Notes: generated by a model not told the origin, from the sequence alone. A stretch of DNA of 64,000 bases from Candidatus Poribacteria bacterium (GCA_965205025.1 CBDBFU010000012.1:213015-277014), one strand, 5' to 3'. Positions 10,447 to 64,000 are shown, counted from the stretch's first letter. Numbers and translations: made by a program.

Positions 10447-10497
10447 AATTTCTTATTATCCTAAAGTGAGTTTGGTGTATGAGAACTGTAATAGATA

Positions 10498-15318: not shown

Positions 15319-15346
15319 TAAGAACAAGCGGTGAAAACTATAAGAT

Positions 15347-16315
15347 ATGCCTTATAAAGAAAGTCCTTACTTTTGCACCCCTTCACGAGATGCCATAATC
15401 TGGCGATACATGTCTATAGACAAATTTATGTTAATACTGAATAGTCAAACACTTTATTTTCCTAATATTTACAAATTCAATGACAAAAGTGAAGGAACAT
15501 TATCAGATAAATCTTTAGAGGAAGTTTATAAGACAAACTTATTTAATGAAGAGAATACACCCATAAAACAAGATGAAGCGTTCATTAAGCAGAAAGAATA
15601 TATAGAACAATCAGCGGAATTACAGACAAAAGAACAATTAGAAGAAAAAATAATGACACTACACTCATTTGCAACATTGCTAAAAGACTTTTCGAACCAT
15701 TTCATGTTTTGTAGCTGTTGGTTTAGAAAAGAACATGAAAGTTTTATAATGTGGGGAGAATATGGTGATAAAAGACACCCATCATCCATAGCCCTTCAAA
15801 CGACTATTGGAGATCTCATTGATAGTTTTGTTGAATATGATGAAGATTATGATGTTCACATAGGTAAGGTAAAATATAAAGATTATCGTGAAGAACATAT
15901 TGAGGGCTACGAGAACTTTGAACAAGAGAACTTAAACAATCCTGATAATGTACTTAAATTATTTTATGCTCCAATTCTACACAAGAAAAAGGTATTTAAT
16001 GACGAACATGAAGTCAGGGCAACTATTTCATTCAAATCTATTTGCAAACATCACTTAGAAGTTCAAGTTGATACATCAAACATACCATTTTACAGCGATA
16101 GAATGTTCACACCAGACTCCAGATACTTCAGTTCAGATACGACTAACTTAATGGATGACGTGCCCTCTGACGGTATCCCAATTAGAATTAACATAAGCAA
16201 ATTAATCAAGACTGTTGCAATATCTAAAATTGGATGGGAATATTTTCAAAAACCATTGGTAGAATTGTTAAAAAACAATAATTTATCTCCAGAAATCGTT
16301 ATTTCTGATATATAG
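15347..16315 (+). CDS. DUF2971-family protein (322 aa)
   Basis: N-terminal 'IIWRYMSIDKFMLILNSQTLYFPNIYKFNDKSEG' matches the DUF2971 hallmark (L-Y-F-s-x-P-x-x-F-N-D-x-x-E). A later 'CWFRKEHESFIMWGEYGD' block also matches. ATG start. Confidence 0.5.
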   Translation: MPYKESPYFCTPSRDAIIWRYMSIDKFMLILNSQTLYFPNIYKFNDKSEGTLSDKSLEEVYKTNLFNEENTPIKQDEAFIKQKEYIEQSAELQTKEQLEEKIMTLHSFATLLKDFSNHFMFCSCWFRKEHESFIMWGEYGDKRHPSSIALQTTIGDLIDSFVEYDEDYDVHIGKVKYKDYREEHIEGYENFEQENLNNPDNVLKLFYAPILHKKKVFNDEHEVRATISFKSICKHHLEVQVDTSNIPFYSDRMFTPDSRYFSSDTTNLMDDVPSDGIPIRINISKLIKTVAISKIGWEYFQKPLVELLKNNNLSPEIVISDI

Positions 16316-16495
16316 TTGATTATTCTGTTGATAAATATATTTGTGTCATTGTTCCACGATGTGGCGTATTTATCAAACCATGAATAATAGTATGAAAATG
16401 CTGAAAGTTGTTATACTTGAAGAGCGATCTATAATCTGATAACAAGTTGTCAAAGCGGAGAAGAGGATTCATTGCAATTAGGAGTCGTAAACACT

Positions 16496-20908: not shown

Positions 20909-21167
20909 CCTTCCCTAACTCAAGATTTGGAATAATCATTCTTTACCGAATAAAATAAGAATTCAAAAAACTAAATAATCCTGCTTCCCCTCATTTTATC
21001 TTGACTATTTTCACATATTAAACATATAATTGTGGATTAATAGGTTTGAATATTATATCTAACCTACAAAATAAGGATACAATCTCATACCATTCTGAAT
21101 ATTAATTTGTAAACATAGTCGGATAGATTATCACTTATTCCAATTTAAGAAACAAAAGGAACACATA

Positions 21168-21935
21168 ATGAAAAAGATCACTCTAACATTTACTTTACTA
21201 TTTCTCGTTGGATTCGTAGTACAACCGGCACTATCACAAGTTGTTGATGGTCTTGTTGCATATTGGGATTTCAACGAAGGTTCAGGTAACATAGCAAAAG
21301 ATATGTCTGGTAATGGACATGACGGAGAATTGTTGGGAGATGCTCAGTGGACTAACGATGGGTATTTCGGTGGTGGAATCGTATTTGATGGTGCTGGAGA
21401 TGAGGTAAATATTCCTTATCATGCAGACCTCAATCCAGAAGTTTTCACCATTTGTGCTTGGGCAAACGTGGCAGATGGAGGAACAGGACATCGTGCTGTA
21501 ATCTCCTCTCGTGCGGATTTCCCACAACGCGGGTTTATCTTCTACTGCACCCCAGGAAATGTATGGCAGTTTTGGATTGGTGCGGGACCAGACAGTTGGA
21601 AATCTGCTCAAGGACCAGGTGTGACTGTTGACGACTGGGATCATCTCGCAGGGACTTATGCTAATGGGAATCATAGGTTTTATGTAAATGGTGAATTTGC
21701 TGCTGAACAGAAATTTAATATCGCTGTTAACCCTGAAGAGGAATTACTTATCGGGGCAGGCGCAAATGAAACTGCTAACCATAACTATTTCTTCAATGGT
21801 ACAATTGATGAAGTGCAAATCTATAACCGTGTCCTCTCCGATGACGAAATCGCAACCGTTATGACAAGTCCCGTGACTGCTGTAGAAGCCTTAGATAAGC
21901 TTGCACTTACATGGGGACAACTCAAAGCGAAGTAG
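21168..21935 (+). CDS. Secreted LamG / concanavalin-A-like lectin-fold protein, paralog 1 of 3
   Basis: Signal peptide 'MKKITLTFTLLFLVGFVVQPALSQ'. Conserved blocks 'DxSGNGHDGxLLGD', 'GDEVNIPYHxDLNPEVFTIxAWANVADGG', 'HRFYVNGEFAAEQ' and 'NGxIDEVxxYNRVLSDDEI'. Ends in '...LTWGQLKAK'. Confidence 0.8.
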   Translation: MKKITLTFTLLFLVGFVVQPALSQVVDGLVAYWDFNEGSGNIAKDMSGNGHDGELLGDAQWTNDGYFGGGIVFDGAGDEVNIPYHADLNPEVFTICAWANVADGGTGHRAVISSRADFPQRGFIFYCTPGNVWQFWIGAGPDSWKSAQGPGVTVDDWDHLAGTYANGNHRFYVNGEFAAEQKFNIAVNPEEELLIGAGANETANHNYFFNGTIDEVQIYNRVLSDDEIATVMTSPVTAVEALDKLALTWGQLKAK

Positions 21936-22025
21936 GATTTGCGATATTTGTGATTCACAGGTTTAAAGTGCTGTGTCTAAGTACAAAATAGCAACTCTCA
22001 ACAAAATTGAAACAGAGGAATAAAA

Positions 22026-22796
22026 ATGAAATATGTCACTTTAACCATAGCATTACTATTACTTATAGGACTGGCAGTACAACCAGTGCTTTCTCAAGAT
22101 CTAAAAAAAGGCATCGTAGCATATTGGGACTTCAACAAAGATGAAGGCGAAACTACCACTGATTCATCTGGCAATGGACACGATGGGACATTGTTAGGGG
22201 ATACAAAATGGACAAAAGACGGCTACTTTGGCGGCGGAGTTATGTTTGATGGTGCTGGAGATGAAGTAAATATTCCTTACCATAAGGATCTTAATCCAGA
22301 AGTATTCACTATCACTGCTTGGGCAAACGTCGCAGATGGTGGTGCTGGACATCGCGCTGTCGTATCATCTCGTGCTGACTTTCCACAACGCGGTTTTATC
22401 TTCTATTGTACTCCTCAGAACACATGGCAGTTTTGGATCGGTGCCGGAGCCAATCACTGGAAATCAGCCCAAGGTCCCGCAGTCAATCTTGATAAATGGG
22501 ATCACCTTGCTGGCACCTATGCGGACGGAAATCATAGGTTTTATGTAAATGGTGAATTTGCAGCGGAACAGAATTTTGATATTGATCTTAACCCCGATCA
22601 AGAATTTCTCATCGGTGCTGGAGCAAATGAAACCGCAAACCATAACTACTTTTTCAATGGTATAATTGATGAAGTACGTCTTTATGACCGTGTTCTGGAC
22701 GACGACGAAATCGAAGCAGTTATGAAGAGTGATTCCTTGGATGTTGAACCATCTGGTAAGATCGCTATTACTTGGGGACAACTCAAAACCAAATAG
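22026..22796 (+). CDS. Secreted LamG-fold protein, paralog 2 of 3
   Basis: Same blocks as 21168..21935, with about 70% identity by eye, visible even at DNA level. Signal peptide. Ends '...ITWGQLKTK'. Confidence 0.8.
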   Translation: MKYVTLTIALLLLIGLAVQPVLSQDLKKGIVAYWDFNKDEGETTTDSSGNGHDGTLLGDTKWTKDGYFGGGVMFDGAGDEVNIPYHKDLNPEVFTITAWANVADGGAGHRAVVSSRADFPQRGFIFYCTPQNTWQFWIGAGANHWKSAQGPAVNLDKWDHLAGTYADGNHRFYVNGEFAAEQNFDIDLNPDQEFLIGAGANETANHNYFFNGIIDEVRLYDRVLDDDEIEAVMKSDSLDVEPSGKIAITWGQLKTK

Positions 22797-22824
22797 CATC
22801 AACACTTTATCCATTTGAATTACT

Positions 22825-22871
22825 TAATATAACAAAGGAGTCGGGTTTAACCCACTCCTTTGTTATATTAA
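22825..22871 (+). terminator. Long perfect inverted repeat (17-bp stem) downstream of LamG paralog 2
   Basis: 'ttaatataacaaaggagt cgggtttaaccc actcctttgttatattaa'. Confidence 0.6.
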
Positions 22872-22876
22872 GTATA

Positions 22877-22965
22877 CAGTGTATCTCATAAATACGAATC
22901 CATTCTACCGATATAATTTCTCTTCGTAGTGGGCGGGATCTCCCCACCCGTTGTTTCAAAATTTA
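22877..22965. repeat. about 90-nt dispersed repeat ('cagtgtatctcat...ttcgtagtgggcgggatctccccaccc...ttcaaaat'), copy A
   Basis: Shares the 'cagt.tatctcat' head and the 'TTCGTAGKGG..GG.T..CC....CC' core with 39871-39965, 41961-42055 and 56560-56615. Confidence 0.5.
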
Positions 22966-23087
22966 TTACATTGACTGACTTTATAGAAAATATTGTACAT
23001 AAACCCTGAGTATTTACTTTGAAAATACCACTGTTACTTGGAAACAACTAATAACTATAAACTAATCCTTAGATGAGGGTATATGAG

Positions 23088-23852
23088 ATGAAGTATATAT
23101 GTATTACATTTGCTTTAATATTCTTTGTTGGATTCATAATACAATCGGCACTATCTAAGAATATTGATGAAGGTATCGTTGCCTATTGGGGACTAAACGA
23201 AGATAATGGTGAAACGGCTAAAGATGATTCTGGGAATGGACACGATGGAAAGTTGCTTGGAGACCCACAGTGGACAAAGGAAGGATATTTTGGAGGAGCT
23301 CTTGAATTCGATCAGGTTGGAGATGAAGTTAACGTTCCATTCCATAAAGATCTCAATCAAGAATCCTTTAGTGTGTGTGCTTGGGCAAACGTTGAACCCG
23401 GAAGTGCAAATCATCGCGCAGTTGTTTCTTGTCGTGATGCCCCGCCATTGAGTGGGTATATCTTTTATGCAGAACCAGGGAATACTTGGCAATATTGGAC
23501 TGGTGATGGGTCATGGGTATCTGTTCAGGGACCTAAGGTAAATCTTGGGGATTGGGATCATCTAACAGGGACCTATGCCGATGGTGTACAAAAGTTCTAC
23601 GTTAACGGAGAATTTGTAGGTGAAAGGAACTCTAAGATTATCGTTAATACAAGACAGGAATTTCTCATTGGTGCCGGTGGGAATGAACTCGGGGCACATC
23701 AATACCTCTTTAAGGGTAGGATTGATGAGGTGCGTTTATATGACCGTGCACTGGACGAAGACGAAATCGCAGCAGTAATGGAGAGTGAAGGATTAGCCGT
23801 GGAAGCATTTCGTAAGATTGCTGTTAAATGGGGACAACTTAAAGCAAAGTAA
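23088..23852 (+). CDS. Secreted LamG-fold protein, paralog 3 of 3 (more diverged)
   Basis: The ORF-track start 23073 gives 'MRVYEM'. ATG at 23088 gives 'MKYICITFALIFFVGFIIQSALS' (signal peptide). Same motif blocks. Ends '...VKWGQLKAK'. Confidence 0.75.
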   Translation: MKYICITFALIFFVGFIIQSALSKNIDEGIVAYWGLNEDNGETAKDDSGNGHDGKLLGDPQWTKEGYFGGALEFDQVGDEVNVPFHKDLNQESFSVCAWANVEPGSANHRAVVSCRDAPPLSGYIFYAEPGNTWQYWTGDGSWVSVQGPKVNLGDWDHLTGTYADGVQKFYVNGEFVGERNSKIIVNTRQEFLIGAGGNELGAHQYLFKGRIDEVRLYDRALDEDEIAAVMESEGLAVEAFRKIAVKWGQLKAK

Positions 23853-37437: not shown

Positions 37438-38112
37438 ATGCAAATTATTTGTGAAGGTAATATAAAGACTCAACTACTTGACCTATATCAACAACTACAA
37501 TCAGAACACGGAAAATTAAGATGGTGGCCAGCAGATACTCCTTTTGAAGTGGCTCTTGGGGCAATTCTTACGCAAGCAACTGCATGGCGAAATGTCGAGA
37601 AGGCACTGGATAATCTAAAAGCTGCCGATAAGTTTACACCCGAAAAAATCAATAAACTCAATCAAGACGAGTTGGAAGAACTTGTACGACCTTCTGGTTA
37701 TTTTCGAGTTAAGGCAAAGAAGGTACGGGCATTTGTTGAACATCTTATTGAACGCCCCATGTCTGCCATGTTCAAGCAGGATGTTCCTGAGTTAAGAGAA
37801 GAATTGCTATCTATCTTCGGTGTAGGTCCGGAAACTGCAGATTCAATTATCTTGTATGCTGCAGAAAAACCAAGTTTTGTTGTTGATACTTACACATACA
37901 GATTGGTGAGTAGATTAGGATGGGTTGAAGGTAATTTTCACTATGAAAGACTAAGAGCTCTATTTATGGATAACCTTCCGCACGATGTTGAACTATTCAA
38001 CGAATACCATGCACTCGTCGTACGGCATGGTGCACGAGTATGTAAAAAAACTCCTGAGTGCATAGCCTGTTGTCTACAAGAAAATTGTGATTACTATTCC
38101 AATTTAGAATAG
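37438..38112 (+). CDS. HhH-GPD-family DNA glycosylase (endonuclease III-like)
   Basis: HhH motif 'LLSIFGVGPETADSIILYA' with a downstream Asp. 224 aa. Confidence 0.7.
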   Translation: MQIICEGNIKTQLLDLYQQLQSEHGKLRWWPADTPFEVALGAILTQATAWRNVEKALDNLKAADKFTPEKINKLNQDELEELVRPSGYFRVKAKKVRAFVEHLIERPMSAMFKQDVPELREELLSIFGVGPETADSIILYAAEKPSFVVDTYTYRLVSRLGWVEGNFHYERLRALFMDNLPHDVELFNEYHALVVRHGARVCKKTPECIACCLQENCDYYSNLE

Positions 38113-41526: not shown

Positions 41527-42283
41527 AAAATAAAATGAAGAAAACAAAAACTTCTAACAACAAATATACATACATCACAACAACCTAAAGTAAATTAAAA
41601 ATATATGTCAAAATAAACTGGAGAATAGGATTATCTATGTTAGAATTACAACTAAAAACATCAGAAATCTTAACAATTGAGAATCATTCACAAATCATAT
41701 ATATTCGTAGCCTAATAAAACAGGTACAGTGGATTATCAAAGTCAGTTTCACCACATATTTTTTTAGTTTTTCAAATTTTAAAATTTTACACCTATTAAT
41801 CAAATCCTTTGTTATCCCAATCCCTAACAGGGTTTACAGCGAATTAAAAAGTCATTTTTTTAAAAGCGACTCAAAAAACTTGAAAAACTTGAAAAACTCA
41901 AAAAACTTGAAAATAGACCTATTTCAAACAATGCACACTATCATATACATCAGTAAACTACAGTGTATCTCATTACTACGAAGCGTCTATACAGATAGAA
42001 TTTTCTTCGTAGTGGCAGGATTTCCCTGTCCATTGGTTCAAAATATTGCAAATGGTAAAACCAATGAATCCTCCAAATCTATGATTTATGAGATATGTTC
42101 TAATGCCTTGTCAAAATCAAAGGATAAGATATTTCACATTCAAACAATTCCAAATCAATGGATCAAAAGAAAAGTAAAAGACACAAAATTCATCCACAAT
42201 TTATATTTGGTGCAAATTCTTGTAACCTTAAAAAAGTGGCTCTAAACCCAGTGTACTACTGACGAGAAAGAGGTTTTACCAAT
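41527..42283 (+). repeat. ~760-bp repeated element, copy 1; contains a 9-bp iteron-like tandem array (aaaaacttg)x4 and a copy of the 'TTCGTAG..' motif; carries a low-complexity ORF (41637..42245)
   Basis: It shares these blocks with 63221..64000: 'aaaataaaatgaagaaaaca..cttctaacaac', 'ttttaaaattttacacc.att.atcaaatcctttgttatcccaatccc.aacagggtttacagc', the (aaaaacttg)n array, and 'caaattcttgtaaccttaaaaaagtg.ctctaaacccagtgta.tactgacg.gaaa.aggttttaccaa'. Confidence 0.8.
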
Positions 42284-52463: not shown

Positions 52464-55400
52464 ATGCGAAAACTTTTTGCTCCACGATGTAGTGTTCTGA
52501 TTTTCTTTTGTTTCTACATTGCCACTGCACATGCCCAAGATAGGGTTCCCACTCATCCCGTTGATGGCACTTTCATCAAAGAGTGGTTGGTGCTGGGTCC
52601 CTTCTTTCCAGAGGATTTGGAGACCGATTTCCTCGCGTCAGTTAACGGCGAGGTTCTTGTTAATCCCAAACCCGGCGATACAGTGACCACCGCTGATGGA
52701 AAGATGTTGACTTGGACGGTATACCGTAGCAAAGGAAACCTTTTCAATCTGCTTCATGCTGTTGGAAACCATCGAGAGGCGGTCTGCTATACTTTCTGCC
52801 TATTGGAAAGCGATCGAGGTGGTGATGGAGAGTTTCTTGTCGGCAGTGATGATGGCGTTGTGGTTTTTCTCAACGGTCAGAGGGTACACACACAGCCAAT
52901 TAGGAGACCTATGGTCGTAGATGAAGATAGGGTCGCTGTTTCATTGCGCCCAGGCAAAAACCGCTGTCTGATGAAGGTCTCAAACGGGTACCAGAATTGG
53001 GCATTAACAGCGCGTGTTTTTCCATCTACTCGTGCAGTGATAGCAGGCGTCATTTCCAATGAAACAGGGAAGACCTTATCCAATGCCATCGTGAACCTGT
53101 GGCAAGGCAGGACCCTGATTGCAAAAACAGAGACCGACACCAGAGGGAATTATCAGTTTTCGGTCTATCCAGCAAGTGGACACTATGATATTCAAGCCAC
53201 CCACGGGGACAGAGGCACTTGGAAGATAGATGTACAACTTTCTACTGGTGTGCGGGTAAACATGAACTTGACTTTACAGAAAGCTATCAGTATCTCTGGG
53301 CACCTGCTAACGCTTGATAATACCCCACATGTTGGTGTCCTTGTGGAAGCATTATCTCTTGGCGAGAGTGGGCCCCGCCAAAGGAGGGTAACGACCTTTT
53401 CAGATAGAGTAGGAAGATATAAATTCATCAACCTGGAACCTGGATCGTATCAATTACGTTGCCACACCTCGGGCGCGTATAGCAGTTTTCAAAAAATAAT
53501 TGTCTCCGTTAGTTCCGAAAAAACTGAGAATATTGGTTTCAGTTTTCCTCCTTTCAAACATGGGACATGGAAAAACTACACTTATCTGGATGGATTGAAA
53601 GATAACTTTATTGAGTCGATTTACCAAGACCGAGACGGTTTTCTTTGGTTTGGGACGCTCAGTAGTGGTGTCTCTCGGTACGATGGCGAAAGGTTCGCCA
53701 ACTTCACCACGGATGATGGTCTTGCATCCGACTCTATCCGATGGATCCATGAAGACAATGCGGGACACCTCTGGTTTAGCACTTGGGGAGTTGGCGTTTC
53801 TCGGTATGATGGCGAAGAGTTTATTAACTTCACCACGGATGAGGGACTCGCATCCAACTTTGTCCGGGCGATTCATCAGGACCGGGAGGGTTACATCTGG
53901 TTCGGGACATACGACGGCGTTTCTCGGTACGATGGTGAAAAGTTCGTCAACTTCACCACAGATGAAGGACTCGTATCCAACTTTGTCCATGCGATCCATG
54001 AAGACAAAGCGGGACACCTCTGGTTTGGCACTTGGGAGGTTGGCGTTTCTCGGTATGATGGAGAAGAGTTTATCAGTTTCACCACGGATGAGGGACTCGT
54101 ATCTAACTCTGTAGCGACGATTCATCAGGACCGGGAGGGTTACATCTGGTTCGGGACAAACGACGGCGTTTCTCGGTACGATGGTGAAAAGTTTGTAAAC
54201 TTCACCACAGATGAGGGCCTCGCATCCAACTTTGTCCAAGCGATTCATCAGGACCGGGAGGGTTACATCTGGTTCGGGACAAGCGGTGGTGCTTCTCGGT
54301 ATGATGGCGAAAAGTTTGTAAACTTCACAATCGGTAAGGGGCCCGCATTTAACGTTGTGACGGCGATCCATCAAGACCGTGAGGGTTACATCTGGTTTGG
54401 AACAGAGGGCAATGGGCTTAGTCAATACGATAGCAGCGGGGTAATCAACTACACGACTTCTGATGGGCTCGTAGACAATCTTGTTTACACAATTTATCAA
54501 GACCATGAAGGGTACATCTGGTTTGGAACCAGGGGCGGAATTAGTCGATATGATGGCGAAAAGTTTATCAATTTTACAACCGATGCTGGACTCGTACACG
54601 ATTTTGTAAATTCGATCTATCAAGACCGTGAGGGGTACATCTGGTTCGGGACACAAGACGGAGTCTCCCAATACGATGGCGAAAAGTTCGTCAACTTCAC
54701 AATTAATGACGGACTCCCAAGCAATTCCGTATGGGCGATCTATCAAGACCATGAGGGTTACATCTGGTTCGGGACAAATGGTAGTGGGGTCTCTCAATAT
54801 GATGGTGAAAATTTTATTAACTTCAATACCGAAGACGGATTGGCACAAAATTATGTGATCTCAATTTATCAAGACCGTGAGGGTTACATCTGGTTCGGGA
54901 CAAACAACGGCGTTTCTCGGTACGATGGCGTAGAGTTCGTCAACTTTACCACGGATGCGGGGCTTGCATCCAACTTTGTCTATGCGATCCATGAAGACAA
55001 AGCGGGACACCTCTGGTTTGGAACCACAGGCGGCGAGGGGGTCTCCCGATATGACGGTGTGAATTTTGTCAACTTCACAAACACTGATGGACTCGCGCAA
55101 AATGATGCAACCTCGATTTACAAAGACCGAGACGGTTTTCTCTGGTTTGGGACGCTCAGCGGTGGTGTCTCTCAATATGACGGGACCGCCTGGACATCTT
55201 TAGATACGCGAGATGGACTCATAAGTGATCAGATTTCAAAAATTTATCAAGACTCAGATGGAAGGTTCTGGTTTGCAACGCTTGATGGGGTGTCCCAATA
55301 CAACCCGAATCGCGTTCCACCGCGTGTGCGGATCGTTTCAGTTCAGAGCCACAAGACATCTGCACAAACTGAATCTCTTAAGACAATTAAGGACATTATG

Positions 55401-56501
55401 ACCGATACTCGTGTAACTATCAAGTATAGTAGTATTGACTTCAAAACCCTAAAAGAAAAACGACAGTATCGAGTTCGCATCAAAGAGATTGACGCTGATT
55501 GGCGTAAACCAACACTATCGGACACCCTTAATATCAGCTTTGATAAACCGGGAACTTATACTTTCGAGGTCGTTGCAATTGACCGTGACCTAAACTACTC
55601 TAACCCGGCAAGCTTGACGTTGACTGTTGTGTTACCGTGGTATCAAAATAAGTGGATTCTCTATCCTTTAGGTGGAGCGATTGTTGTGTTAATGTTACTT
55701 TGTGGTACCTTTGTGTATCGTTACTACCAGCAGCATCAACAAGTTTTAGCCTATCAGCGGGAAGCGGTTTCTGAACTCGCTGATGCACAAGAGATGCAGA
55801 TGGGATTAATACCGCAAACCCCCCCTGAGGTCCCAGGATTTGAGATTGCAGGAGTCTGTATCTCTGCCCGTACCGTCAGTGGGGATTTTTTTGACTATGT
55901 TCCGCTCAGCAACGGAACGCTTGCGGTTGTGCTGGCAGATGTCGCCGGTAAAGGTATGAAGGGGGCAATGAATGCTATTTTATCTTCTGGTGCACTTTAT
56001 TCTGTGGCGCAGTTGGAAATGTCTTCATCTCAAATGTTGTGGGCATTGAACCAGAATCTTTATTCTCGATTTCAACGATATACTAATTGTGCTATGGCGA
56101 TACTGACAATTGACCCAACGGATAAGACGTTTAAATATGCTAACGCCGGAATTCCTTATCCTATGATCAAACGTGGTGAAGGTGATGTTGAAGAAATATC
56201 AATAGATGGACTCCCATTGGGCGCGTTTAAATCATCTGAATATGAAGAAACACCATCCGTTGAACTGAAGTCTGGAAATTTAATAATCCTTTTCAGTGAT
56301 GGCATTACCGAAGCATCTCAAAGAGACAATTCTGACCAACTTTACATGGAAACCGACCGCTTGACATACCTTATCAAAGAACTGGATAAAACAATGAACG
56401 CAGAAGCGGTGATAGATGCGATTATTAACGATGTTCGTGATTTTTCTGGTGACACTCAACAGAACGACGACATGACTATTGTAGTTATCAAAGCATTGTA
56501 A
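52464..56501 (+). CDS. Membrane-anchored sensor: periplasmic CarboxypepD_reg-like domains, about 18 Reg_prop (two-component regulator propeller) repeats, a Y_Y_Y-like Ig domain, one TM, and a cytoplasmic PP2C/SpoIIE-type Ser/Thr phosphatase
   Basis: Signal peptide. About 18 x 'GYIWFGTxxGVSRYDGEKFVNFTTDEGLxSN'. TM 'ILYPLGGAIVVLMLLCGTFVY'. SpoIIE-like 'SGDFFDYVPL...LADVAGKGMKGAM...FSDGITEA...NDDMTIVVIKAL'. No histidine-kinase motifs. Confidence 0.8.
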   Translation: MRKLFAPRCSVLIFFCFYIATAHAQDRVPTHPVDGTFIKEWLVLGPFFPEDLETDFLASVNGEVLVNPKPGDTVTTADGKMLTWTVYRSKGNLFNLLHAVGNHREAVCYTFCLLESDRGGDGEFLVGSDDGVVVFLNGQRVHTQPIRRPMVVDEDRVAVSLRPGKNRCLMKVSNGYQNWALTARVFPSTRAVIAGVISNETGKTLSNAIVNLWQGRTLIAKTETDTRGNYQFSVYPASGHYDIQATHGDRGTWKIDVQLSTGVRVNMNLTLQKAISISGHLLTLDNTPHVGVLVEALSLGESGPRQRRVTTFSDRVGRYKFINLEPGSYQLRCHTSGAYSSFQKIIVSVSSEKTENIGFSFPPFKHGTWKNYTYLDGLKDNFIESIYQDRDGFLWFGTLSSGVSRYDGERFANFTTDDGLASDSIRWIHEDNAGHLWFSTWGVGVSRYDGEEFINFTTDEGLASNFVRAIHQDREGYIWFGTYDGVSRYDGEKFVNFTTDEGLVSNFVHAIHEDKAGHLWFGTWEVGVSRYDGEEFISFTTDEGLVSNSVATIHQDREGYIWFGTNDGVSRYDGEKFVNFTTDEGLASNFVQAIHQDREGYIWFGTSGGASRYDGEKFVNFTIGKGPAFNVVTAIHQDREGYIWFGTEGNGLSQYDSSGVINYTTSDGLVDNLVYTIYQDHEGYIWFGTRGGISRYDGEKFINFTTDAGLVHDFVNSIYQDREGYIWFGTQDGVSQYDGEKFVNFTINDGLPSNSVWAIYQDHEGYIWFGTNGSGVSQYDGENFINFNTEDGLAQNYVISIYQDREGYIWFGTNNGVSRYDGVEFVNFTTDAGLASNFVYAIHEDKAGHLWFGTTGGEGVSRYDGVNFVNFTNTDGLAQNDATSIYKDRDGFLWFGTLSGGVSQYDGTAWTSLDTRDGLISDQISKIYQDSDGRFWFATLDGVSQYNPNRVPPRVRIVSVQSHKTSAQTESLKTIKDIMTDTRVTIKYSSIDFKTLKEKRQYRVRIKEIDADWRKPTLSDTLNISFDKPGTYTFEVVAIDRDLNYSNPASLTLTVVLPWYQNKWILYPLGGAIVVLMLLCGTFVYRYYQQHQQVLAYQREAVSELADAQEMQMGLIPQTPPEVPGFEIAGVCISARTVSGDFFDYVPLSNGTLAVVLADVAGKGMKGAMNAILSSGALYSVAQLEMSSSQMLWALNQNLYSRFQRYTNCAMAILTIDPTDKTFKYANAGIPYPMIKRGEGDVEEISIDGLPLGAFKSSEYEETPSVELKSGNLIILFSDGITEASQRDNSDQLYMETDRLTYLIKELDKTMNAEAVIDAIINDVRDFSGDTQQNDDMTIVVIKAL
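53560..55200 (+). repeat. about 87-bp periodic, near-identical nucleotide repeats encoding the Reg_prop array
   Basis: 'gagggttacatctggttcgggaca' recurs about 8 times. These repeats generate the spurious 464-aa antisense ORF 53454..54848. Confidence 0.85.
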
Positions 56502-56992: not shown

Positions 56993-57420
56993 TTGAAGTC
57001 AATACTCGGTCTCCTCGTTGTTGGACTTATTGTGGGCATAAATAAATATCTGGACTGGGCGGGGGAGTATCACAAGTATTCCAAATATCGCTATATCTAC
57101 AAAGACCTAAACACAAGAGAAGAAAAACATAAAATCCACTATGGGATTACAAGTCTGTCCCCTGAGAAAGCGTCAGCAGAACGCTTACTATCTTTACGGC
57201 GTGGACATTGGTCAATAGAGAACAAGTCGCACTGGATGCGGGACACGCCCCTTGGAGAAGATTCATCACCTGTCTGATCTGGTGCTATTCCACAAGTCAT
57301 GGCAGCATTGCGAAATACAGCATTATCCGTATTCCGGTTCATAGGAGCTACACGGATTGCTGATATGATGAAATATTATGCTTCAAATCCTAAAATCGCA
57401 GTAAACATCATAAAATGAGA
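56993..57420 (+). pseudogene. Degenerate C-terminal fragment of a DDE transposase (IS4/ISAs1-type 'HWSIEN' family) with an in-frame TGA
   Basis: '...ITSLSPEKASAERLLSLRRGHWSIENKSHWMRDTPLGEDSSPV*SGAIPQVMAALRNTALSVFRFIGATRIADMMKYYASNPKIAVNIIK*'. The TGA at 57275-57277 is in frame. The N-terminal about 250 aa of a normal transposase, including the DDE residues, is absent. Other genes in this window use TGA as a stop. Confidence 0.6.
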
Positions 57421-57546: not shown

Positions 57547-59184
57547 ATGAATGAACAACTTTCCCATCCTTTTATAAATGATGCAGCATTTAGAGACGCT
57601 GAAAAACGTGTTTTGGGAAATATTCTCACACAATTTGAAGAACTATCCAATGATGAGCTTGAGGAATTAGTTAAAACGAATGTGGAATTTCTTGGAAATG
57701 ATCATATCCGGAAGATTATTGGAAGTACTTATAACAAAGAAATAGAATCCGTTGAATATACTATTGGAAGTGCTAATTTTAATGAGAAGATCCTATCGAA
57801 TGCCTGTGCAAAGATGGAAGGGAAATGGGTAATTTCGGTAGATGAATCAATGGTGGATACAGAGAGTTTTGTCGGTGAAGTCGTATACAGACATAGTTGT
57901 GCATTCGGATATAAAATCCCAAAAACCTTGGATGAAGAAATTGTACCCAAGGAAGAGAGGATACTGGCAGTTTCATCAATTCTACGACTCCAAGATGAGG
58001 AAGATTTTGATAGAAAAATGGCACTCTTAACCTACATGCTCAACCTGTATGTTGCTTATTATACAGCAAAGATTCTTCAGTCATTGAATCAACCTATATA
58101 CGCTGTGATTTTACATGGACCTCTAATTCGGTTAATTGCCCCGTTTTTGAATCTTCTTTTTCGGAAGGAGGATATCAAAAAAGTCGTTACTGCTGATACT
58201 GAACCGCTTATAGATACTACTGATGAGATAAAAACGATTGCTTGTGGCGACTTGCTAGATTTAATAGTGGATGATCCAATTTATCAAGGTATCTCAGAAC
58301 AATTTATTGGATTATTTCCCAGAGAAAGATTGCAAAATGTGAAAGAAAGATTAGATAAAGGTGAAATAATCGGGATTGGATTTTATTTTTCTTTGCTCAG
58401 AAAATTGTCAGACTTAGCTAAAGAGATGAATTTTCACCTGATCAGTTGTGTAGATAATGCCACTTCAACAGAGTATTCAAAATTATATGTCCAGTATCAA
58501 ATTGAGCGTTTCGGGCAGGATTCTATTAACCAGGAAATCCTTCGCAAATTATTTGCAGCTTACGGTGTAAACTTTAGCAAGCAGTTCATAAAGGAAAGGT
58601 TTCGAGACTTAATTGACAAATCAGGTTGGGATGATGAAATGATTCATGCTTTTTCACTGAAATTTGATAATGAAAAGTCAATAGAATCCGAATTTACTCA
58701 ACCTGTGCCGATCCGGAGATATTTTACAGGTGGTAAAAATCAGGATATATTCGGGTTTAGGTTTGGTTCTGCATTTATTTCTGAAGATCCGTCACGGGAA
58801 ACTTTAATCAATCAGATTATAGATACTCTGTACCCGTTTAAAGACTACAGAATGTTAATGAGTTTTGTCCGTACAAGTGCTCTTAAGGCTCCAATTCGGG
58901 TGGAATTCCTTGAACAAGGAGGGGAAGATAATTGGAAAGAGGTATTGGCCTCAATCTATATTTCAAGTCTTCCGTACGGCAGTTATGGGTTACCAATATT
59001 CTTGTATTATGCAGATAAAATGGTGCGGATGCCGAAAGAAATTATATCAGTTGTTACTGAATCATACCTTGTTGAACAAGCAACGAGAGCATTGCATCAA
59101 ATCGGTTTGAGTGATGTAAAGTTAAAGGATGTCTTTTTAGGGGTCACGCAAAAGTTTAGAAGAGATTTCTATGAGCGAGGGTGA
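57547..59184 (+). CDS. Hypothetical 545-aa protein, first gene of the HerA/TGT cassette; tentatively NurA-like (RNase-H-like nuclease)
   Basis: ATG start. The TGA stop overlaps the upstream GTG of the next gene. There is no unambiguous motif. 'KWVISVDESMVD' (about aa 95), 'AVILHGPLIRL' (about aa 185) and 'HLISCVDNATS' (about aa 300) resemble the spacing of the acidic motifs of NurA-type nucleases, but this is weak. Confidence 0.7.
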   Translation: MNEQLSHPFINDAAFRDAEKRVLGNILTQFEELSNDELEELVKTNVEFLGNDHIRKIIGSTYNKEIESVEYTIGSANFNEKILSNACAKMEGKWVISVDESMVDTESFVGEVVYRHSCAFGYKIPKTLDEEIVPKEERILAVSSILRLQDEEDFDRKMALLTYMLNLYVAYYTAKILQSLNQPIYAVILHGPLIRLIAPFLNLLFRKEDIKKVVTADTEPLIDTTDEIKTIACGDLLDLIVDDPIYQGISEQFIGLFPRERLQNVKERLDKGEIIGIGFYFSLLRKLSDLAKEMNFHLISCVDNATSTEYSKLYVQYQIERFGQDSINQEILRKLFAAYGVNFSKQFIKERFRDLIDKSGWDDEMIHAFSLKFDNEKSIESEFTQPVPIRRYFTGGKNQDIFGFRFGSAFISEDPSRETLINQIIDTLYPFKDYRMLMSFVRTSALKAPIRVEFLEQGGEDNWKEVLASIYISSLPYGSYGLPIFLYYADKMVRMPKEIISVVTESYLVEQATRALHQIGLSDVKLKDVFLGVTQKFRRDFYERG

Positions 59185-59198
59185 AAGGAGAAAAGAGA

Positions 59199-61199
59199 AT
59201 GGTTTTGGGAATAATCTTTGGTGAAACATCAACGCAGGAATTTTCCTTTCTATTTGGAGATGTAGATGGCGAACGTCAAAATCAATTGAAATTTTCCTAT
59301 GTTGAAGTTAATATACCTGAAAGTAATGATAAGGTTGTTGCTAAAGTTATTGATGTAAATACAGAGAATCCACTATTGGCAAAAGATACTGCAAAGTTTT
59401 ATTCGGAGCACGAAACAGTTGGAATTTCGGTCCCTGATATAATATCGCACCGATTCACTTTGTATCAAGCCAAATGTGAAGTAATGGGGATCTATAATAG
59501 TATAGAAAACAAAATAGAACCCCTAACGCAGGCGATAAAACCCGGTGAGAAAGTAGAACTATTATCCAATGATGTGCTCAATCAACTCTTCTCTGCAAGC
59601 GAGGAATGGCATTTTCCCCTTGGATATGTTGAGATACCCGGCAGACAAACACATGCTCAAGTATCTTTGAAAGCAGACTCAATCATTACGATGCACGCTT
59701 GTGTTTTTGGCATGACAGGAATGGGTAAAACCACAACATCTGCTGTGCTCTTAGAAGAATTAATGTTCCGTGGTGCAAAGATCATCGTATTTGATCCACA
59801 CGCTGATTATATACATATTAATCGGATACGTCAAAAACTCAATGATGATTTTTCAGAAAGAATTCATAAGCATCAAGGCCTGATAGATAAAATATCAGAA
59901 TACAAGGAATTATTAATAAGTAAATGGTCAAGTAACTGGTCTCAGAGAGAAGTCAAACCTTGGGATGATTTTGATCCATCATTCAAAGATCTTATAAATG
60001 AGAAAGTCAATGAAGAATTAACATCTGAGAATATTTTTTATCGCTTACTTAGTTTATGTTCAATTAAAAATCGTAATCTAATGGTTGACTCTACGCGCAT
60101 CTCTGAACAATTGGATGACATTATTGACGGAATCACGCATCTTGATTTACATAATGGAATCCCTCAGGAACTCATTCACCGGAAGTTGACTATTAAGTTT
60201 AATGCTTTTCCTAGCCTCCAAGTATATACAGATAAAAGTCCTTACTTCACAATGAGATTGATTGAAGCAATAGCGGGTGAAGGTTTTTCAGAGGCACAAG
60301 AAGGTTTTGTAATTGATTGGCTGTCGCACCCACCAAAGCCGAATTTATCTGATGAACAACTTCTTTACTACTTAAAATCACGTATTAAGGATATGCCTAA
60401 ATCAAAAGACGGCAAACCCAATCCATCCCAAGTTCCTCTAAACCGAATTGTTGATAAGGCAAGCCGGACTGTCGTGTCTTTGATAAAACGAAAGTGCACG
60501 TCTCTAAATATCAGTAATTTTGTTGATGCTTTTTGTGCAAAGGGTGAGAGTTTATCTAATGTGGCGACAGCGGTATTTGATCTTTCAGATTTGGAAAATG
60601 ATCACGCAAGGCGAGCTTTGATTTATGCTGTTATGGAATTTGCTTTTGATAGGTATAAATCAAAAAGTTTTATTGTAGAAAAAGATAATCATCATGTAGG
60701 CAAAGATGCACATCCTGTACTTTTTGCTCTTGAGGAAGCAAGGACATTAATCCCCCGGCAAGATGAAAGTAGCACTACCGGAGAAATGCATCCCGCGACC
60801 AGAGCAGCTCGACTTGCAGCAAGACAAATTGCAACTGAAGGACGGAAGATGGGACTTGGTATGCTTGTTATCTCGCAAAAACCCGCTTCAGTAGATCCAA
60901 TAACTGTTTCTCAAGCAAATACGTTAATTTTGCACCGAGTTATTAACCCGGATGATCAGACGTACATCCGTAATGTTGGCGAATCTTTAGCTAGTGAAGA
61001 TTTGGAAACTTTGAAAACTGTAAAAGAAGGTGTTGCTATTGTTACGGGTGATGCCTTAAAAACCAGAATGTCTACATTAGTTAAAGTCAGAAATCGTTAT
61101 AGTGAACCTGGCACTGAAAAACCTCGCCCAATAGAAAGATTTTGGAACGATCCTAATAGAGAGACTTCAAGTGAAGTTCCTGAGTCTACAACGGAATAA
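59199..61199 (+). CDS. HerA/FtsK-type (DUF87) hexameric ATPase
   Basis: The ORF-track GTG start at 59181 overlaps the upstream stop. ATG at 59199 is preceded by SD 'aaaggag'. HAS-barrel-like N-terminus 'MVLGIIFGETSTQEFSFLF'. Walker A 'FGMTGMGKTTTSAV'. 'IIVFDPHADY' (HerA DPHGEY-type). Walker-B region 'VLFALEEARTLIP'. Hallmark 'GRKMGLGMLVISQKPASVDPITVSQANTLILHRVINPDD'. Confidence 0.85.
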   Translation: MVLGIIFGETSTQEFSFLFGDVDGERQNQLKFSYVEVNIPESNDKVVAKVIDVNTENPLLAKDTAKFYSEHETVGISVPDIISHRFTLYQAKCEVMGIYNSIENKIEPLTQAIKPGEKVELLSNDVLNQLFSASEEWHFPLGYVEIPGRQTHAQVSLKADSIITMHACVFGMTGMGKTTTSAVLLEELMFRGAKIIVFDPHADYIHINRIRQKLNDDFSERIHKHQGLIDKISEYKELLISKWSSNWSQREVKPWDDFDPSFKDLINEKVNEELTSENIFYRLLSLCSIKNRNLMVDSTRISEQLDDIIDGITHLDLHNGIPQELIHRKLTIKFNAFPSLQVYTDKSPYFTMRLIEAIAGEGFSEAQEGFVIDWLSHPPKPNLSDEQLLYYLKSRIKDMPKSKDGKPNPSQVPLNRIVDKASRTVVSLIKRKCTSLNISNFVDAFCAKGESLSNVATAVFDLSDLENDHARRALIYAVMEFAFDRYKSKSFIVEKDNHHVGKDAHPVLFALEEARTLIPRQDESSTTGEMHPATRAARLAARQIATEGRKMGLGMLVISQKPASVDPITVSQANTLILHRVINPDDQTYIRNVGESLASEDLETLKTVKEGVAIVTGDALKTRMSTLVKVRNRYSEPGTEKPRPIERFWNDPNRETSSEVPESTTE

Positions 61200-61217
61200 A
61201 TCAGACTTAAGTAAAAA

Positions 61218-62987
61218 ATGTGTTGGATGGGAATAGTAATAATGTCAGAATGTTTACAATCTAATCAGCAGCAACACACGGGAGGTAATTTGTTGATTTT
61301 AGGATGTTCTGACCGAAAACGTGAGTGTTACGGAAGCGCCCCAGCACTTGAAGTTTATGACGGTCCAAACTTCCAAACCCTCCGAAAGTACTTCAGGGAA
61401 AATGGATGGCCTCCCGGTCTTATAATAAAAATAATCTCTGCTAAATATAAAATCATTGACGCTACAACAATTATTGAACCCTATGATGAGCGACTGGATA
61501 AAGAAACAGCGAAAAAAATGAGGAATCGAGTAAGGTATCATTTAAAAAAAATTGAGCACCCAAAATCTGTTTTCGTCAATATGGGTAAGAACTATTTACC
61601 TGCAATTTCTTGCATTAAGTCTTTATATAATCCTGACAGAATTGAGTATGCAAAAGGTGGATATGTACAAAAACGCAAGGAGCTTAAACAGTGGCTTGAA
61701 GGTTTATCAAATAACACTGCTACAATCAATTCTCAAGAACAATCAGATAAGAAGTCTTATCTTTACTTTTTTCCAGATTGGAATGATTATGTTTATGAAT
61801 CTTTCGATCCAGAGAAAATAGATGAAAATCGGAAACCTGAGAAAGGAGTAAAAAAGTACGCTCACGAGATATTTAAGGATGATCCGCCTTATGACGGTTT
61901 ACTCCTCAGTCTTGCCCAACTGCAAACTAAAAATGGACAACTTACCCGACTTGATGAAAAAGGCTCATCGAATTTTCGAACTGAGATGCGGGTTCCTAAT
62001 AGGCTTTTATTATTCGGAGATTGCGGTGCTTTTTCATACATTGAGGATGAAAAGCCTCCCATTTCCTGTGAGGATGCGGCTTTTCGGTATAGTCAATTCG
62101 GTTTTGACCTTGGGACATCTGTCGATCATATACCGATTTCATCGATATCCAAAAGAAAGCAACGATACCGGATGGACTTAACAGCTGAAAATGCCAAAAA
62201 GTTTTTAGAAATTTGTCAGAACAACGAATACGAATTCGATCCAATTGGGAGCATACAAGGTATCATACCTAAACATTATGCTAAATTTGCCAGTGAATAT
62301 ATTAAATGGGGATATGAGCATGTTGCATTAGGTGGATTAGTACGTAGACAAGATTCAGATATTGTAGAAATAGTTGCAGCTGTTCGGGAGGCATTACAGA
62401 AAAGCACATGGAGTAAAAATAAAAATATTTGGGTACATCTTTTTGGCATTCTGAGACCAAATCTTCAACCCATTTTTCGGGAACTTGGTGTTTCCAGTTT
62501 TGACAGCGCATCTTACTTGAGAAAAGCGTGGTCAAGTCCAAATAGGAGCTATTTAACTGCATCTGGAAAGTGGTACGGAAGCATCCGAGTACCTTTTAGT
62601 ACATCAAAACCAATGCGCGAAGTTGCGAAATCTGATGCTAAGTTTTCTAAGAATGGTGCTATGCAGAAATTGGAAAAAGAATGTCTTACGAACCTTAAAC
62701 TTTTTGATGATAGGAAAATATCAGAGGAGAAAGTTCTTGAGAACATTAATGAATATAGTGCACTGCTTCAACGAAAAAAAACATATAACCATTTTTCCGA
62801 AAGACATAAGGAGTTATTAGATGAACGCCCTTGGAAAAAATGTAAATGTAAGATTTGCCAAGATTTGGGTATACATGTTGTAGTTTTCAGGGGAGCAAAC
62901 CGTAACAGACGAAGAGGTTTCCACAATACCTGGGTATTTTATCACAAAATTCTACATAAAGGTCGCAAAATATCATCTAAAGAGTAA
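61218..62987 (+). CDS. tRNA-guanine-transglycosylase (TGT/DpdA)-fold protein with an extra ~190-aa N-terminal domain
   Basis: C-terminal zinc site 'CKCKICQDLGIHVVVFRGANRNRRRGFHNTWVFYH' (C-x-C-x2-C...H, as in the TGT family). 'HLFGILRPNLQPIFRELGVSSFDSASY' resembles TGT 'MGVGKP...GVDMFDCV'. 'LLLFGDCGAFSYIED' fits the substrate-pocket Asp region. The N-terminal 'LLILGCSDRKRECYGSAPALEVYDGPNFQTLRKY...' is not part of the canonical TGT barrel. ATG 61218, with an alternative at 61242. Confidence 0.7.
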   Translation: MCWMGIVIMSECLQSNQQQHTGGNLLILGCSDRKRECYGSAPALEVYDGPNFQTLRKYFRENGWPPGLIIKIISAKYKIIDATTIIEPYDERLDKETAKKMRNRVRYHLKKIEHPKSVFVNMGKNYLPAISCIKSLYNPDRIEYAKGGYVQKRKELKQWLEGLSNNTATINSQEQSDKKSYLYFFPDWNDYVYESFDPEKIDENRKPEKGVKKYAHEIFKDDPPYDGLLLSLAQLQTKNGQLTRLDEKGSSNFRTEMRVPNRLLLFGDCGAFSYIEDEKPPISCEDAAFRYSQFGFDLGTSVDHIPISSISKRKQRYRMDLTAENAKKFLEICQNNEYEFDPIGSIQGIIPKHYAKFASEYIKWGYEHVALGGLVRRQDSDIVEIVAAVREALQKSTWSKNKNIWVHLFGILRPNLQPIFRELGVSSFDSASYLRKAWSSPNRSYLTASGKWYGSIRVPFSTSKPMREVAKSDAKFSKNGAMQKLEKECLTNLKLFDDRKISEEKVLENINEYSALLQRKKTYNHFSERHKELLDERPWKKCKCKICQDLGIHVVVFRGANRNRRRGFHNTWVFYHKILHKGRKISSKE

Positions 62988-63220: not shown

Positions 63221-64000
63221 AAAATAAAATGAAGAAAACATTAACTTCTAACAACTAATATACATCTATTACATTAAAACAAAATGCATGAATATTATTT
63301 ATCATAATGAAAATAAATTTGAAATTATTGGTACACTATGGCAAAATTAATCTGGATTATACCCTGCACAATAGAAGTGTTTCATTAATTATAGGTTTTA
63401 TTATATGTGCTAAATTAACTATCTGGAGTAGAAGAAAATCCATGTTAGAATTACGAATAAAACATTCAGAATTGTCTCCTTATGAGAATCATCCTAAGAA
63501 CATACATACTCATAATCTAAAAAAGCTGGTACAGAGGATTATTGTACCGAATTACACCATATATTTTTTTAGTTTTTTTAGTTTTAAAATTTTACACCGA
63601 TTCATCAAATCCTTTGTTATCCCAATCCCCAACAGGGTTTACAGCATTTCAAAAAGTAATTTCTTAAAAAGCGATTTGAAAAACTTGAAAAACTTAAAGA
63701 ACTTGAAAAACTTAAAATTTGAGCAGCAACAAACAAAACAGACGATCATACACACAAGAAAACCACTAAACGTTTCGAAGGATATAATTACATTTCTTCT
63801 GTGGGTAAGGATTCCGATCCCGATCTTAACTACTTTACATATCCCTAAGATATTTAACATTCAAACAATTTCAAAACAATGGATTAGAAGAATAAAAAAA
63901 GACACAGCATACACTATTTTTGCAAATTCTTGTAACCTTAAAAAAGTGTCTCTAAACCCAGTGTAGTACTGACGGGAAAAAGGTTTTACCAAAGTTACAC
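63221..64000 (+). repeat. about 760-bp repeated element, copy 2 (runs to the window edge); direct orientation relative to copy 1; contains (aaaaacttg)-type iteron array and a low-complexity ORF (63307..63966)
   Basis: See 41527..42283. The array here reads 'gaaaaacttgaaaaacttaaagaacttgaaaaacttaaaa'. Confidence 0.8.

Follow-up and report, generated by a model that had tools for sequence, protein, structure and literature searches.

A compact cassette of three genes in the genome of a Candidatus Poribacteria bacterium (GCA_965205025.1, CBDBFU010000012.1:213015-277014) may constitute a minimal Dpd-like restriction-modification (R-M) system, which would write a 7-deazaguanine mark into the DNA of its own cell and destroy DNA that is unmarked. 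We put the probability of this reading at about 0.5, both the modification and the restriction function being inferred from sequence and by analogy. The cassette occupies positions 57547-62987 on the plus strand of the 64,000-nucleotide (nt) stretch that was analysed, called the window below. Gene A (57547-59184; 545 amino acids, aa) encodes a predicted divergent NurA-family nuclease, gene B (59199-61199) a HerA-type hexameric translocase ATPase, and gene C (61218-62987; 589 aa) a fusion of a DpdC-like DUF6884 domain to DpdA, a DNA-guanine transglycosylase. The first-pass annotation had described a three-gene unit of a NurA-like(?) protein, a HerA-type ATPase and a protein of the tRNA-guanine transglycosylase (TGT)/DpdA fold. 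Three genes are indeed present, but the unit has four components, as the DUF6884 domain fused to DpdA had been overlooked. In other lineages, this fourth component is a separate gene.

The assignment of gene C carries most of the argument. Its DpdA domain (61755-62954, aa 180-579) matches the NCBIfam DpdA equivalog NF041059 over residues 183-578 with 338.6 bits against a cut-off of 200, the PADLOC DpdA model with E = 1.9e-95, and the DNA-guanine transglycosylase of Salmonella Montevideo (PDB 7ui4) with E = 8.4e-60. Scores against two tRNA TGT models are far below their cut-offs (33.2 bits against 350 and 20.1 bits against 47.6). The earlier placement in the TGT superfamily is thereby confirmed and sharpened to DpdA. 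In the S. Montevideo enzyme, Asp95 is shown or proposed to act as acid/base, Asp256 as nucleophile and Phe99 in base-stacking (PMC10164549). The alignment with 7ui4 places D268, F272 and D429 of gene C at these three positions (D95, F99 and D256, respectively), and pairs D303 with D130, G372-G373 with G206-G207, Q347 with H181 and F409 with L236. The zinc site of C542, C544, C547 and H569 is aligned to the WRKCECNIC...RGFHN segment of 7ui4. It was found that D268, F272, D303, G372-G373, D429 and the four zinc ligands are invariant among 11 diverse homologues of gene C. Two positions differ from the Salmonella enzyme, where His181 is replaced by Gln (Q347) and Leu236 by Phe. Gln at the position of His181 is the residue of bacterial tRNA TGT. 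Taken together, strong homology suggests that gene C is a DNA-acting, catalytically competent DpdA and not a tRNA TGT. A phage or anti-restriction origin of gene C was also considered and is unsupported, since no relative was found on viral contigs.

The N-terminal part of gene C (61296-61610, aa 27-131) matches PF21818 (DUF6884) with 40.5 bits against a cut-off of 30. Because both domains lie on one open reading frame (ORF), gene C is a two-domain fusion, and the same DUF6884::DpdA fusion was seen in about 100 of the best 120 gene C homologues. Besides passing the PF21818 threshold, the domain has a YaaA-like fold and the two family motifs, CxxxK (GCSDRK, C30..K34) and LSAxxG (ISAKY, S74 A75), along with YDGP (47-50) and EPYD (87-90). 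According to the Pfam paper, DUF6884 is distantly related to YaaA/PF03883 and has a cleft that binds DNA. DpdC, the converter of preQ0-DNA to ADG-DNA, is assigned to PF03883 (DUF328), and a published dpd survey reports dpdC to carry the Pfam domain DUF6884. In orthologous cassettes where DUF6884 is a protein of its own, that protein exceeds the thresholds of PF21818 and of PF03883 and matches DUF5591 weakly. In archaeosine synthase (ArcS), DUF5591 forms the catalytic C1 core and has a PC-x3-K motif; the phage protein ArcS2 consists of this domain alone and, when co-expressed with DpdA2, converts dPreQ0 to dG+ in DNA. The PADLOC DpdC models do not match the DUF6884 domain of the window, and they match its relatives weakly (2e-5 to 8e-4). 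A PDB sequence search with the DUF6884 profile gave nothing meaningful, and matches came from fold comparison alone; among viral structures these were phage DUF6884/YaaA proteins and, at a probability of 0.91 (a weak match), the DUF5591 protein of phage nt-1. The overlap of PF21818 and PF03883, the weak DUF5591 and DpdC matches and the fold matches place the domain in the YaaA/DpdC/ArcS fold group. Two members of this group, DpdC and ArcS2, have each been shown to derivatise the nitrile of preQ0 inside DNA. The predicted target of the DUF6884 domain of gene C is therefore the 7-substituent of the deazaguanine that DpdA would insert.

Gene A is more divergent. Against Pfam NurA (PF09376) the window protein itself scores 19.5 bits, just under the cut-off of 21. 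Many of its orthologues have a precomputed PF09376 match, however, and the distant relatives found by the gene A family profile all pass the threshold. Profile-profile comparison with NurA (hhalign) gave a probability of 99.6% and E = 7e-25, and fold comparison showed the RNase H/PIWI-like fold of NurA. With 545 aa, gene A is longer than the solved NurA chains matched by fold (319-396 aa). A PDB sequence search with the gene A profile returned nothing meaningful; here as well, matches came from fold comparison alone. The conserved motifs of gene A are IDES (D99), QDEED (E151/E152), LHGPL (H190) and GCV(E/D)..S.EY (aa 300-311), followed in the C-terminal part by RVEF (451-454) and YGLPIFLYYADK..R (D490, K491, R494). 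The metal-binding catalytic residues of archaeal NurA are Asp, Glu, Asp and His. In gene A homologues, D99, E151/E152, H190 and D490 are invariant or nearly so, and we take them to lie on the strands and the helix expected for the NurA metal site. The queried NurA-like identity thus stands, and gene A appears to be a divergent NurA that is detectable only by profile or by fold. Its family is tiny, with 63 clusters (E <= 1e-3) in a set of 1.84 billion representatives, and was met only in the context of NurA, HerA, DpdA and DUF6884.

The identification of gene B as a HerA/DUF87 ATPase was likewise upheld, as each motif quoted for it in the first-pass annotation was located and PF01935 (DUF87) is matched with E = 1.1e-19 and 71.8 bits against a cut-off of 23.2. 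Numbered from the GTG at 59181, the motifs are GMTGMGKTT at 177-185 (Walker A, K183), DPHADY at 205-210, LFALEEAR at 514-521 (Walker B), GRKMGLG at 554-560 and SQANTLILHRV at 577-587. The PADLOC HerA model gave 2.1e-37. The best NCBIfam match was helicase_HerA, the archaeal repair HerA (2.7e-35), with a score that falls far short of the equivalog cut-off. Among solved structures, eight HerA-class chains were matched at E <= 1e-7, the nearest being HerA from an archaeal complex with NurA (9x1l_A, E = 1.4e-22); TdpA (8wet_A) was matched with E = 0.004. The Walker A and Walker B motifs are about 330 residues apart (59709-60743, aa 177-521), and residues 145-625 align onto just about 290 positions of the PADLOC mad8 model. 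Together, these two observations suggest a large insertion within the ATPase domain.

Translation of the window yielded three intact ORFs at the positions given previously, all on the plus strand, and the tight packing described for them was borne out in its details. The stop of gene A overlaps an alternative GTG start of gene B at 59181 (59181-61199, 672 aa), gene B and gene C are separated by 18 nt, and the three form one tight unit. The ATG at 59199 is the more probable start of gene B, because AAGGAG stands just before it and homologous HerA genes begin 12-15 nt past the NurA stop. The herA and nurA genes of the cassette are probably translationally coupled. Going by homologues, the true start of gene C may be the ATG at 61242 (M9). 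Scans for promoters and terminators gave nothing above the shuffled expectation. The closest relatives come from Poribacteria (up to 81-92% identity), and no exact-sequence database record was found for the window's own gene A or gene C product.

The genes are co-conserved. A genome-wide scan seeded with gene A returned 19 loci (L numbers below denote individual loci), of which 17 are informative in that they are not cut by a contig end; 14 of the 19 are from Poribacteria, two from Thermochlorobacter, two from Hydrogenothermaceae (Aquificota) and one from an uncultured bacterium. NurA adjoins HerA in the window and in 19/19 genomic loci, and NurA-like protein, HerA, DUF6884 and DpdA occur together in 17/17 informative loci. 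Their arrangement varies. DUF6884 is fused to dpdA in most Poribacteria, the window included; in Thermochlorobacter, Aquificota and JGI metagenome contigs it stands alone as a gene that precedes nurA and overlaps it, and in L007 and L021 it follows dpdA, again as a separate gene. Co-conservation across at least three phyla, with shuffled order and fusion, shows that the adjacency is not due to chance, and the check across genomes proposed in the first-pass annotation therefore came out in favour of a linked set. Modules have been exchanged between loci, since L007 retains a NurA and a HerA that are 67% and 64% identical to those of the window, while identity drops to 40% for its DpdA. NurA-HerA was never encountered where DpdA was missing, whereas a few loci with ample flanking sequence hold DpdA/DUF6884 and no helicase-nuclease.

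Damage or interruption was seen in several cassettes. In L016 (11644-14831), an insertion of about 1.2 kb splits HerA, and in Thermochlorobacter L003/L023 (11639-13565) a frameshift does so; NurA and DpdA are in pieces in L026 (9732-16513), and insertion sequence (IS) transposase genes lie within the cassettes of L008 (11869-13002) and L015 (14586-15941). Others have neighbours of a defensive kind. In L024, from a metagenome-assembled genome of Hydrogenothermaceae (5964-21367), Cas3 and an AAA_14/DUF4143 ATPase are encoded upstream of the cassette, and Cas4, a GP88-family protein, an RlaP/MazG-like protein and a 1262-aa SF1 helicase downstream; these surroundings look like a defence island. 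In L001/L002 (JGI metagenome, 15091-18279), a 1062-aa MmeI-like N6-methyltransferase/Eco57I-type gene follows dpdA within 2 nt, possibly as a second R-M activity coupled to the four-gene cassette. Genes for HicA, PIN, Fic or GmrSD were found near other cassette loci.

A metagenome scan seeded with gene C returned 80 loci, which were annotated with local hidden Markov models (HMMs). Here, 49 loci combine DpdA/DUF6884 with a UvrD-type helicase and a PD-(D/E)XK nuclease, two carry UvrD/PD-(D/E)XK plus NurA-HerA, and the other 29 are mostly short contigs or belong to a distant DpdA group. The window cassette is thus the rarer branch of a family in which DpdA/DUF6884 usually partners with UvrD and PD-(D/E)XK. 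The sister system, DUF6884(::)DpdA with UvrD and PD-(D/E)XK (L030-L085; e.g., L005 10001-14859 and L066 430-6705), is much the commoner type in metagenomes. It occurs in several gene orders, frequently beside YhhQ, QueD, QueC, FolE2 or a QueE-like gene. Composite loci, with both helicase-nuclease pairs beside a single DpdA gene, make up 6/17 of the genome loci; composite Poribacteria loci are L013, L015, L016, L017, L019, L022, L028 and L029. In three of them (L017, L028, L029), DUF6884 occurs twice, as a stand-alone gene ahead of nurA and as part of the DpdA fusion. In a neighbour-joining tree of DpdA domains, NurA-HerA is the partner of two lineages. The first is unfused and comprises Aquificota, Thermochlorobacter and L007/L021; the second, the fused DpdA of the window, is nested in the UvrD-type fused clade, beside the composite Poribacteria loci. 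Elsewhere in the window, a local HMM scan found no UvrD, PD-(D/E)XK, or extra copy of DUF6884 or DpdA.

Neighbours of the related loci include the YhhQ/Vut_1 preQ0 transporter family (16 loci), QueD (15), FolE2 (7), QueC (5), a QueE-like radical-SAM protein (5) and MazG (4). The distant DpdA group (L086, L091, L092 and L096-L099; e.g., L086 3068-11249) has a second, shorter DpdA paralogue on the opposite strand, and also encodes a DUF6884-like protein of about 250 aa, a small HTH protein and, in five loci, an AAA_22 protein of about 1000 aa. Extra DpdA paralogues were seen in L104, L107 and partly L105, with HerA in L104 and L107; these loci may be related to the BREX-Related Capture (BRC) systems compared below.

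On these grounds a four-step mechanism can be proposed. The substrate preQ0 would be supplied by the queuosine pathway of the host, encoded elsewhere in the genome. DpdA, judging by strong homology and an intact active site, would then swap guanines in the double-stranded DNA of the cell itself for preQ0 by the double-displacement chemistry of TGT, with D429 as the nucleophile and D268 as the general acid/base. The DUF6884 domain, which has a Cys-x3-Lys motif, might, given its family, fold and fusion, turn the nitrile of dPreQ0 into the final mark, an ADG-like or G+-like base. By analogy and comparative genomics, a HerA hexamer and the NurA-family nuclease would finally thread and degrade unmarked DNA, whereas marked self DNA would be spared, as in the case of TdpAB of the phosphorothioate Tdp system. 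HerA-NurA would then be one of two interchangeable helicase-nuclease arms, the other being UvrD with PD-(D/E)XK, served by one DpdA/DUF6884 writer family. In the Dnd and Ssp systems, too, one modification module is shared by alternative restriction modules.

Several observations argue for a restriction role of HerA-NurA. Two unrelated helicase-nuclease pairs are interchangeable, and both coexist with one writer in the composite loci; moreover, the TdpABC precedent contains a HerA/NurA-like complex, TdpAB. The swap of DpdA beneath a conserved NurA-HerA in L007 suggests that the two arms communicate via the DNA mark and not via a fixed protein interface. The fact that writers are sometimes alone while NurA-HerA never lacks DpdA is an asymmetry of the R-M type, albeit in small numbers. 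That the helicase-nuclease is an effector is also suggested by the cassettes that decay or take IS insertions (L003, L016, L026), and by the location of L024 between Cas3 and Cas4 and of L001 next to an MmeI-like R-M gene. The recurrent YhhQ/Vut_1, QueD, FolE2, QueC and QueE-like genes of the related loci link the family to preQ0 chemistry.

Other observations weigh against this reading. None of these preQ0 genes was seen beside loci of the NurA/HerA type, and the census of orphan writers is small, at four loci. H190 and D490 of gene A appear to be swapped with respect to the Asp and His of classical NurA, so that its nuclease activity is not certain. No PADLOC model matches gene A, and no system was recognised at the cassette. 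The neighbours of the cassette are housekeeping genes (Tricorn-like protease, LeuRS, RNase J, Obg, NFACT) and not a defence island, and in eight Poribacteria loci the Tricorn-like gene upstream keeps its synteny with the cassette. Finally, HerA could serve the modification step, since Salmonella DpdA needs the ATPase DpdB, of which there is none here.

This last point leads to the main rival, which we regard as doubtful but clearly ahead of the others. It holds that the cassette only modifies DNA or assists in its modification: HerA, or UvrD in the sister systems, would replace DpdB as the ATP-driven factor and open or scan the DNA for DpdA to flip out and exchange guanines, the nuclease would nick the DNA or load the motor, and the mark would be epigenetic or protective with no built-in restriction. 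Salmonella DpdA strictly needs ATP hydrolysis by DpdB, for which a helicase-like local unwinding has been suggested (PMC10164549). DpdB is absent from the window and from related cassettes, an ATPase is almost always adjacent to DpdA, and DUF6884 and DpdA often enclose the helicase-nuclease genes within a single operon. A pure writer would have no need, however, of the dedicated nuclease (NurA or PD-(D/E)XK) that always accompanies the motor, and the two helicase-nuclease pairs beside a single DpdA in composite loci would be redundant as helpers, while such pairs are typically found as alternative restriction arms. Phage DpdA enzymes carry out preQ0 insertion in the absence of DpdB, and a few DpdA/DUF6884 loci have no motor nearby. 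A HerA that substitutes for DpdB and a HerA-NurA that restricts are not mutually exclusive.

Less probable by a good measure is a module for DNA damage and repair, in which DUF6884 would find damaged or abasic sites, DpdA would replace damaged guanine with intact guanine, and HerA-NurA would resect the ends that result. YaaA is a DNA-binding protein of the peroxide stress response, YfjM, itself a member of DUF6884, has turned up among the interactors of abasic and RNA-base lesions, DpdA performs guanine-for-guanine exchange in vitro (PMC10164549), HerA-NurA is the classical end-resection machine, and the cassette of the window has housekeeping surroundings. Guanine repair would not require the preQ0 synthesis and YhhQ genes to which relatives are linked, though, and neither the patchy taxonomy, with some cassettes decayed, IS-interrupted or beside defence genes, nor the very small size of the gene A family speaks for it. 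The idea that a housekeeping operon for HerA-NurA repair and a TGT that modifies tRNA are neighbours by chance can be given hardly any credence. It would agree with the names NCBI gives to some orthologues of gene A ('DNA double-strand break repair nuclease NurA') and gene C ('tRNA-guanine transglycosylase DpdA'), and with an archaeal repair HerA as the best NCBIfam match of gene B. We rejected it in view of the co-conservation in 17/17 informative loci from three phyla with shuffled order, the domain fusion, the gene C score on the DpdA equivalog compared with the tRNA TGT models, and the restriction of the gene A family to this one context.

A minimal Dpd-like R-M system remains the preferred reading, and a broader proposal can tentatively be built on it, although we consider it the less probable of the two. 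The cassette and its sisters might form an unrecognised family of minimal 7-deazaguanine R-M systems, with one DpdC-like::DpdA writer, plug-in helicase-nuclease arms and neither DpdB nor DpdD-K. The motor-nuclease might read the mark by stalling, or DUF6884 might be a reader that licenses or blocks the nuclease, and the DUF6884 product may be neither ADG nor G+. The published dpd survey would miss such loci, since it required dpdA and dpdB together, and the missing gene A model in PADLOC is a gap in the available tools. A review of 2025 states that the restriction activity tied to the 11-gene Dpd system 'has not been further explored'. A cassette of three to four genes would be a far more tractable model for how restriction machinery reads 7-deazaguanine marks: one operon holds a writer (DpdC-like::DpdA) and a well-understood type of motor-nuclease (HerA-NurA), and natural sister systems and composites are available. 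If the reading is correct, DpdA may work without DpdB, the principle of TdpAB, in which a DNA modification gates a HerA-NurA arm, would carry over from backbone to base marks, and the DpdC::DpdA fusion would be useful for writing deazaguanines into DNA. The interest of the cassette rests on its being small, conserved and directly testable.

The flanks of the cassette had been described as those of a horizontally acquired module, with a decayed transposase upstream, a repeated element downstream and a higher AT content. Both elements do flank the cassette. The C-terminal fragment of a DDE transposase just upstream (56993-57277, plus strand), which is a flank and not a functional part, matches PF01609 (DDE_Tnp_1) slightly below threshold (E = 1.1e-4, 22.5 bits, cut-off 23; profile positions 127-178 of 200). 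The repeat of about 760 bp at 41527-42290 matches 63221-64000 in direct orientation with 77-93% identity. It is AT-rich (about 30% GC) and holds ORFs at 41637-42245 (202 aa) and 63307-63966 (219 aa) with no Pfam match; the second copy contains a KNLKNLKNL repeat and extends to the end of the window. The element may be mobile or a paralogous gene. The cassette is indeed lower in GC (0.370 against 0.403 +/- 0.036 for the other ORFs), but the difference is marginal, within about one standard deviation. Together with the housekeeping neighbours and the synteny in Poribacteria, this leaves the case for horizontal acquisition weak, and a recently acquired AT-rich island was rejected. No tRNA gene or Rfam match that could mark an integration site was found in the window. 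As for a defence island, the surroundings in the window do not resemble one, whereas elsewhere L024 with Cas3/Cas4 and L001 with its MmeI-like gene provide such settings. The reported absence from the window of preQ0 genes of the queC/queD/queE/folE type, of DpdB and of the SNF2/DEAD partners of Dpd holds for ORFs of at least 150 aa, a scope that a QueD of about 120 aa could have escaped.

Some further features of the window concern other genes. The gene at 52464-56501 (1345 aa) encodes a Reg_prop (two-component regulator propeller) protein that ends in a SpoIIE/PP2C phosphatase domain; its 12 tandem units of 123-126 nt (53667-55164) encode the Reg_prop repeats and form the most GC-rich stretch of the window. 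At 21168-23852, there are three tandem paralogues of about 255 aa each with a Laminin_G_3 domain, their DNA repeats being 66-76% identical. A Uma2-family putative restriction endonuclease and an HhH-GPD base-excision glycosylase (6814-7518 and 37438-38112) are unlinked to the cassette.

Among known systems, the cassette resembles in its chemistry the canonical Dpd system, which comprises the 11 genes dpdA-K and is known from Salmonella Montevideo and Kineococcus. Both have a transglycosylase of the bDpdA type in which the catalytic Asp triad and the zinc site agree, and presumably the same logic of modification and helicase/nuclease restriction; the DUF6884 domain would correspond to DpdC (DUF6884/DUF328) as a partner acting on inserted preQ0. 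Relatives of the cassette, like dpd islands, are found clustered with queC/D/E, folE and yhhQ. However, DpdB, a ParB/DndB-like ATPase, is found neither in the window nor beside related cassettes, and DpdD-K (SNF2/DEAD helicases and a PLD nuclease) are absent from the window, with HerA and NurA in their place. The DpdC-like domain is about 150 aa long and fused to DpdA, whereas the PADLOC DpdC models have about 300 positions; Gln replaces His181, and there are three to four genes instead of 11. Membership of the canonical system was rejected on the absence of DpdB and DpdD-K.

The restriction arm has a parallel in TdpABC, the phosphorothioate R-M system published by An et al. (2025, Nat Chem Biol; PDB 8wet), in which a HerA/NurA-like arm (TdpAB) is likewise coupled to DNA modification. 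There, TdpC places a phosphorothioate in the backbone, whereas in the cassette DpdA would place a 7-deazaguanine base, and no TdpC-like gene is present in the cassette. TdpA is much further from gene B (E = 0.004) than the archaeal HerA is (1.4e-22), and TdpB resembles gene A by fold only, with no sequence match. Orthology of genes A and B to TdpAB was rejected, as the similarity is at fold level only. The HerA-NurA end-resection complex of archaea and bacteria shares with the cassette the adjacent herA and nurA genes, the NurA fold of gene A and the nearest solved relative of gene B. The cassette differs in being unlinked to mre11/rad50 and strictly linked to DpdA and DUF6884, and in the greater length of its NurA.

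BRC systems, described in 2026 (NAR; PMC12839542), have seven components: PglZ, a DUF6079/BrxC-like protein, a STAND NTPase, a DUF4007/BrxA-like protein, HerA, GNAT and TGT. TGT occurs in only a subset of loci, and no DpdC homologue was reported (PMC12839542). In common with the cassette, BRC has a HerA/FtsK translocase and a TGT/DpdA homologue without DpdB, and its proposed role is to mark self DNA with 7-deazaguanine (PMC12839542). Window ORFs of 150 aa or more include no PglZ, DUF6079/BrxC-like, STAND NTPase or DUF4007 component, and the cassette adds NurA and a DpdC-like domain. Membership of BRC was rejected, as the BREX-like components are absent from the window. Phage DpdA2 with ArcS2 (Vibrio phage nt-1) and DpdC share with gene C the pairing of a transglycosylase with a small 'cantaloupe-fold' enzyme with a C-x3-K-type motif; on viral contigs, however, gene C had no relative among the matches.

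The literature searched contains no description of a NurA/HerA/DpdA or UvrD/PD-(D/E)XK/DpdA cassette, although an earlier mention is not excluded. The statement in the first-pass annotation that no system of this architecture had been described thus stands for the combination itself, but it has to be tempered by the precedents of BRC, with HerA/FtsK and TGT, and of TdpABC. What is known is the Dpd chemistry and the modification-gated HerA/NurA-like arm. What we infer to be new is their union, i.e., a Dpd-type 7-deazaguanine system with a TdpAB-like effector arm.

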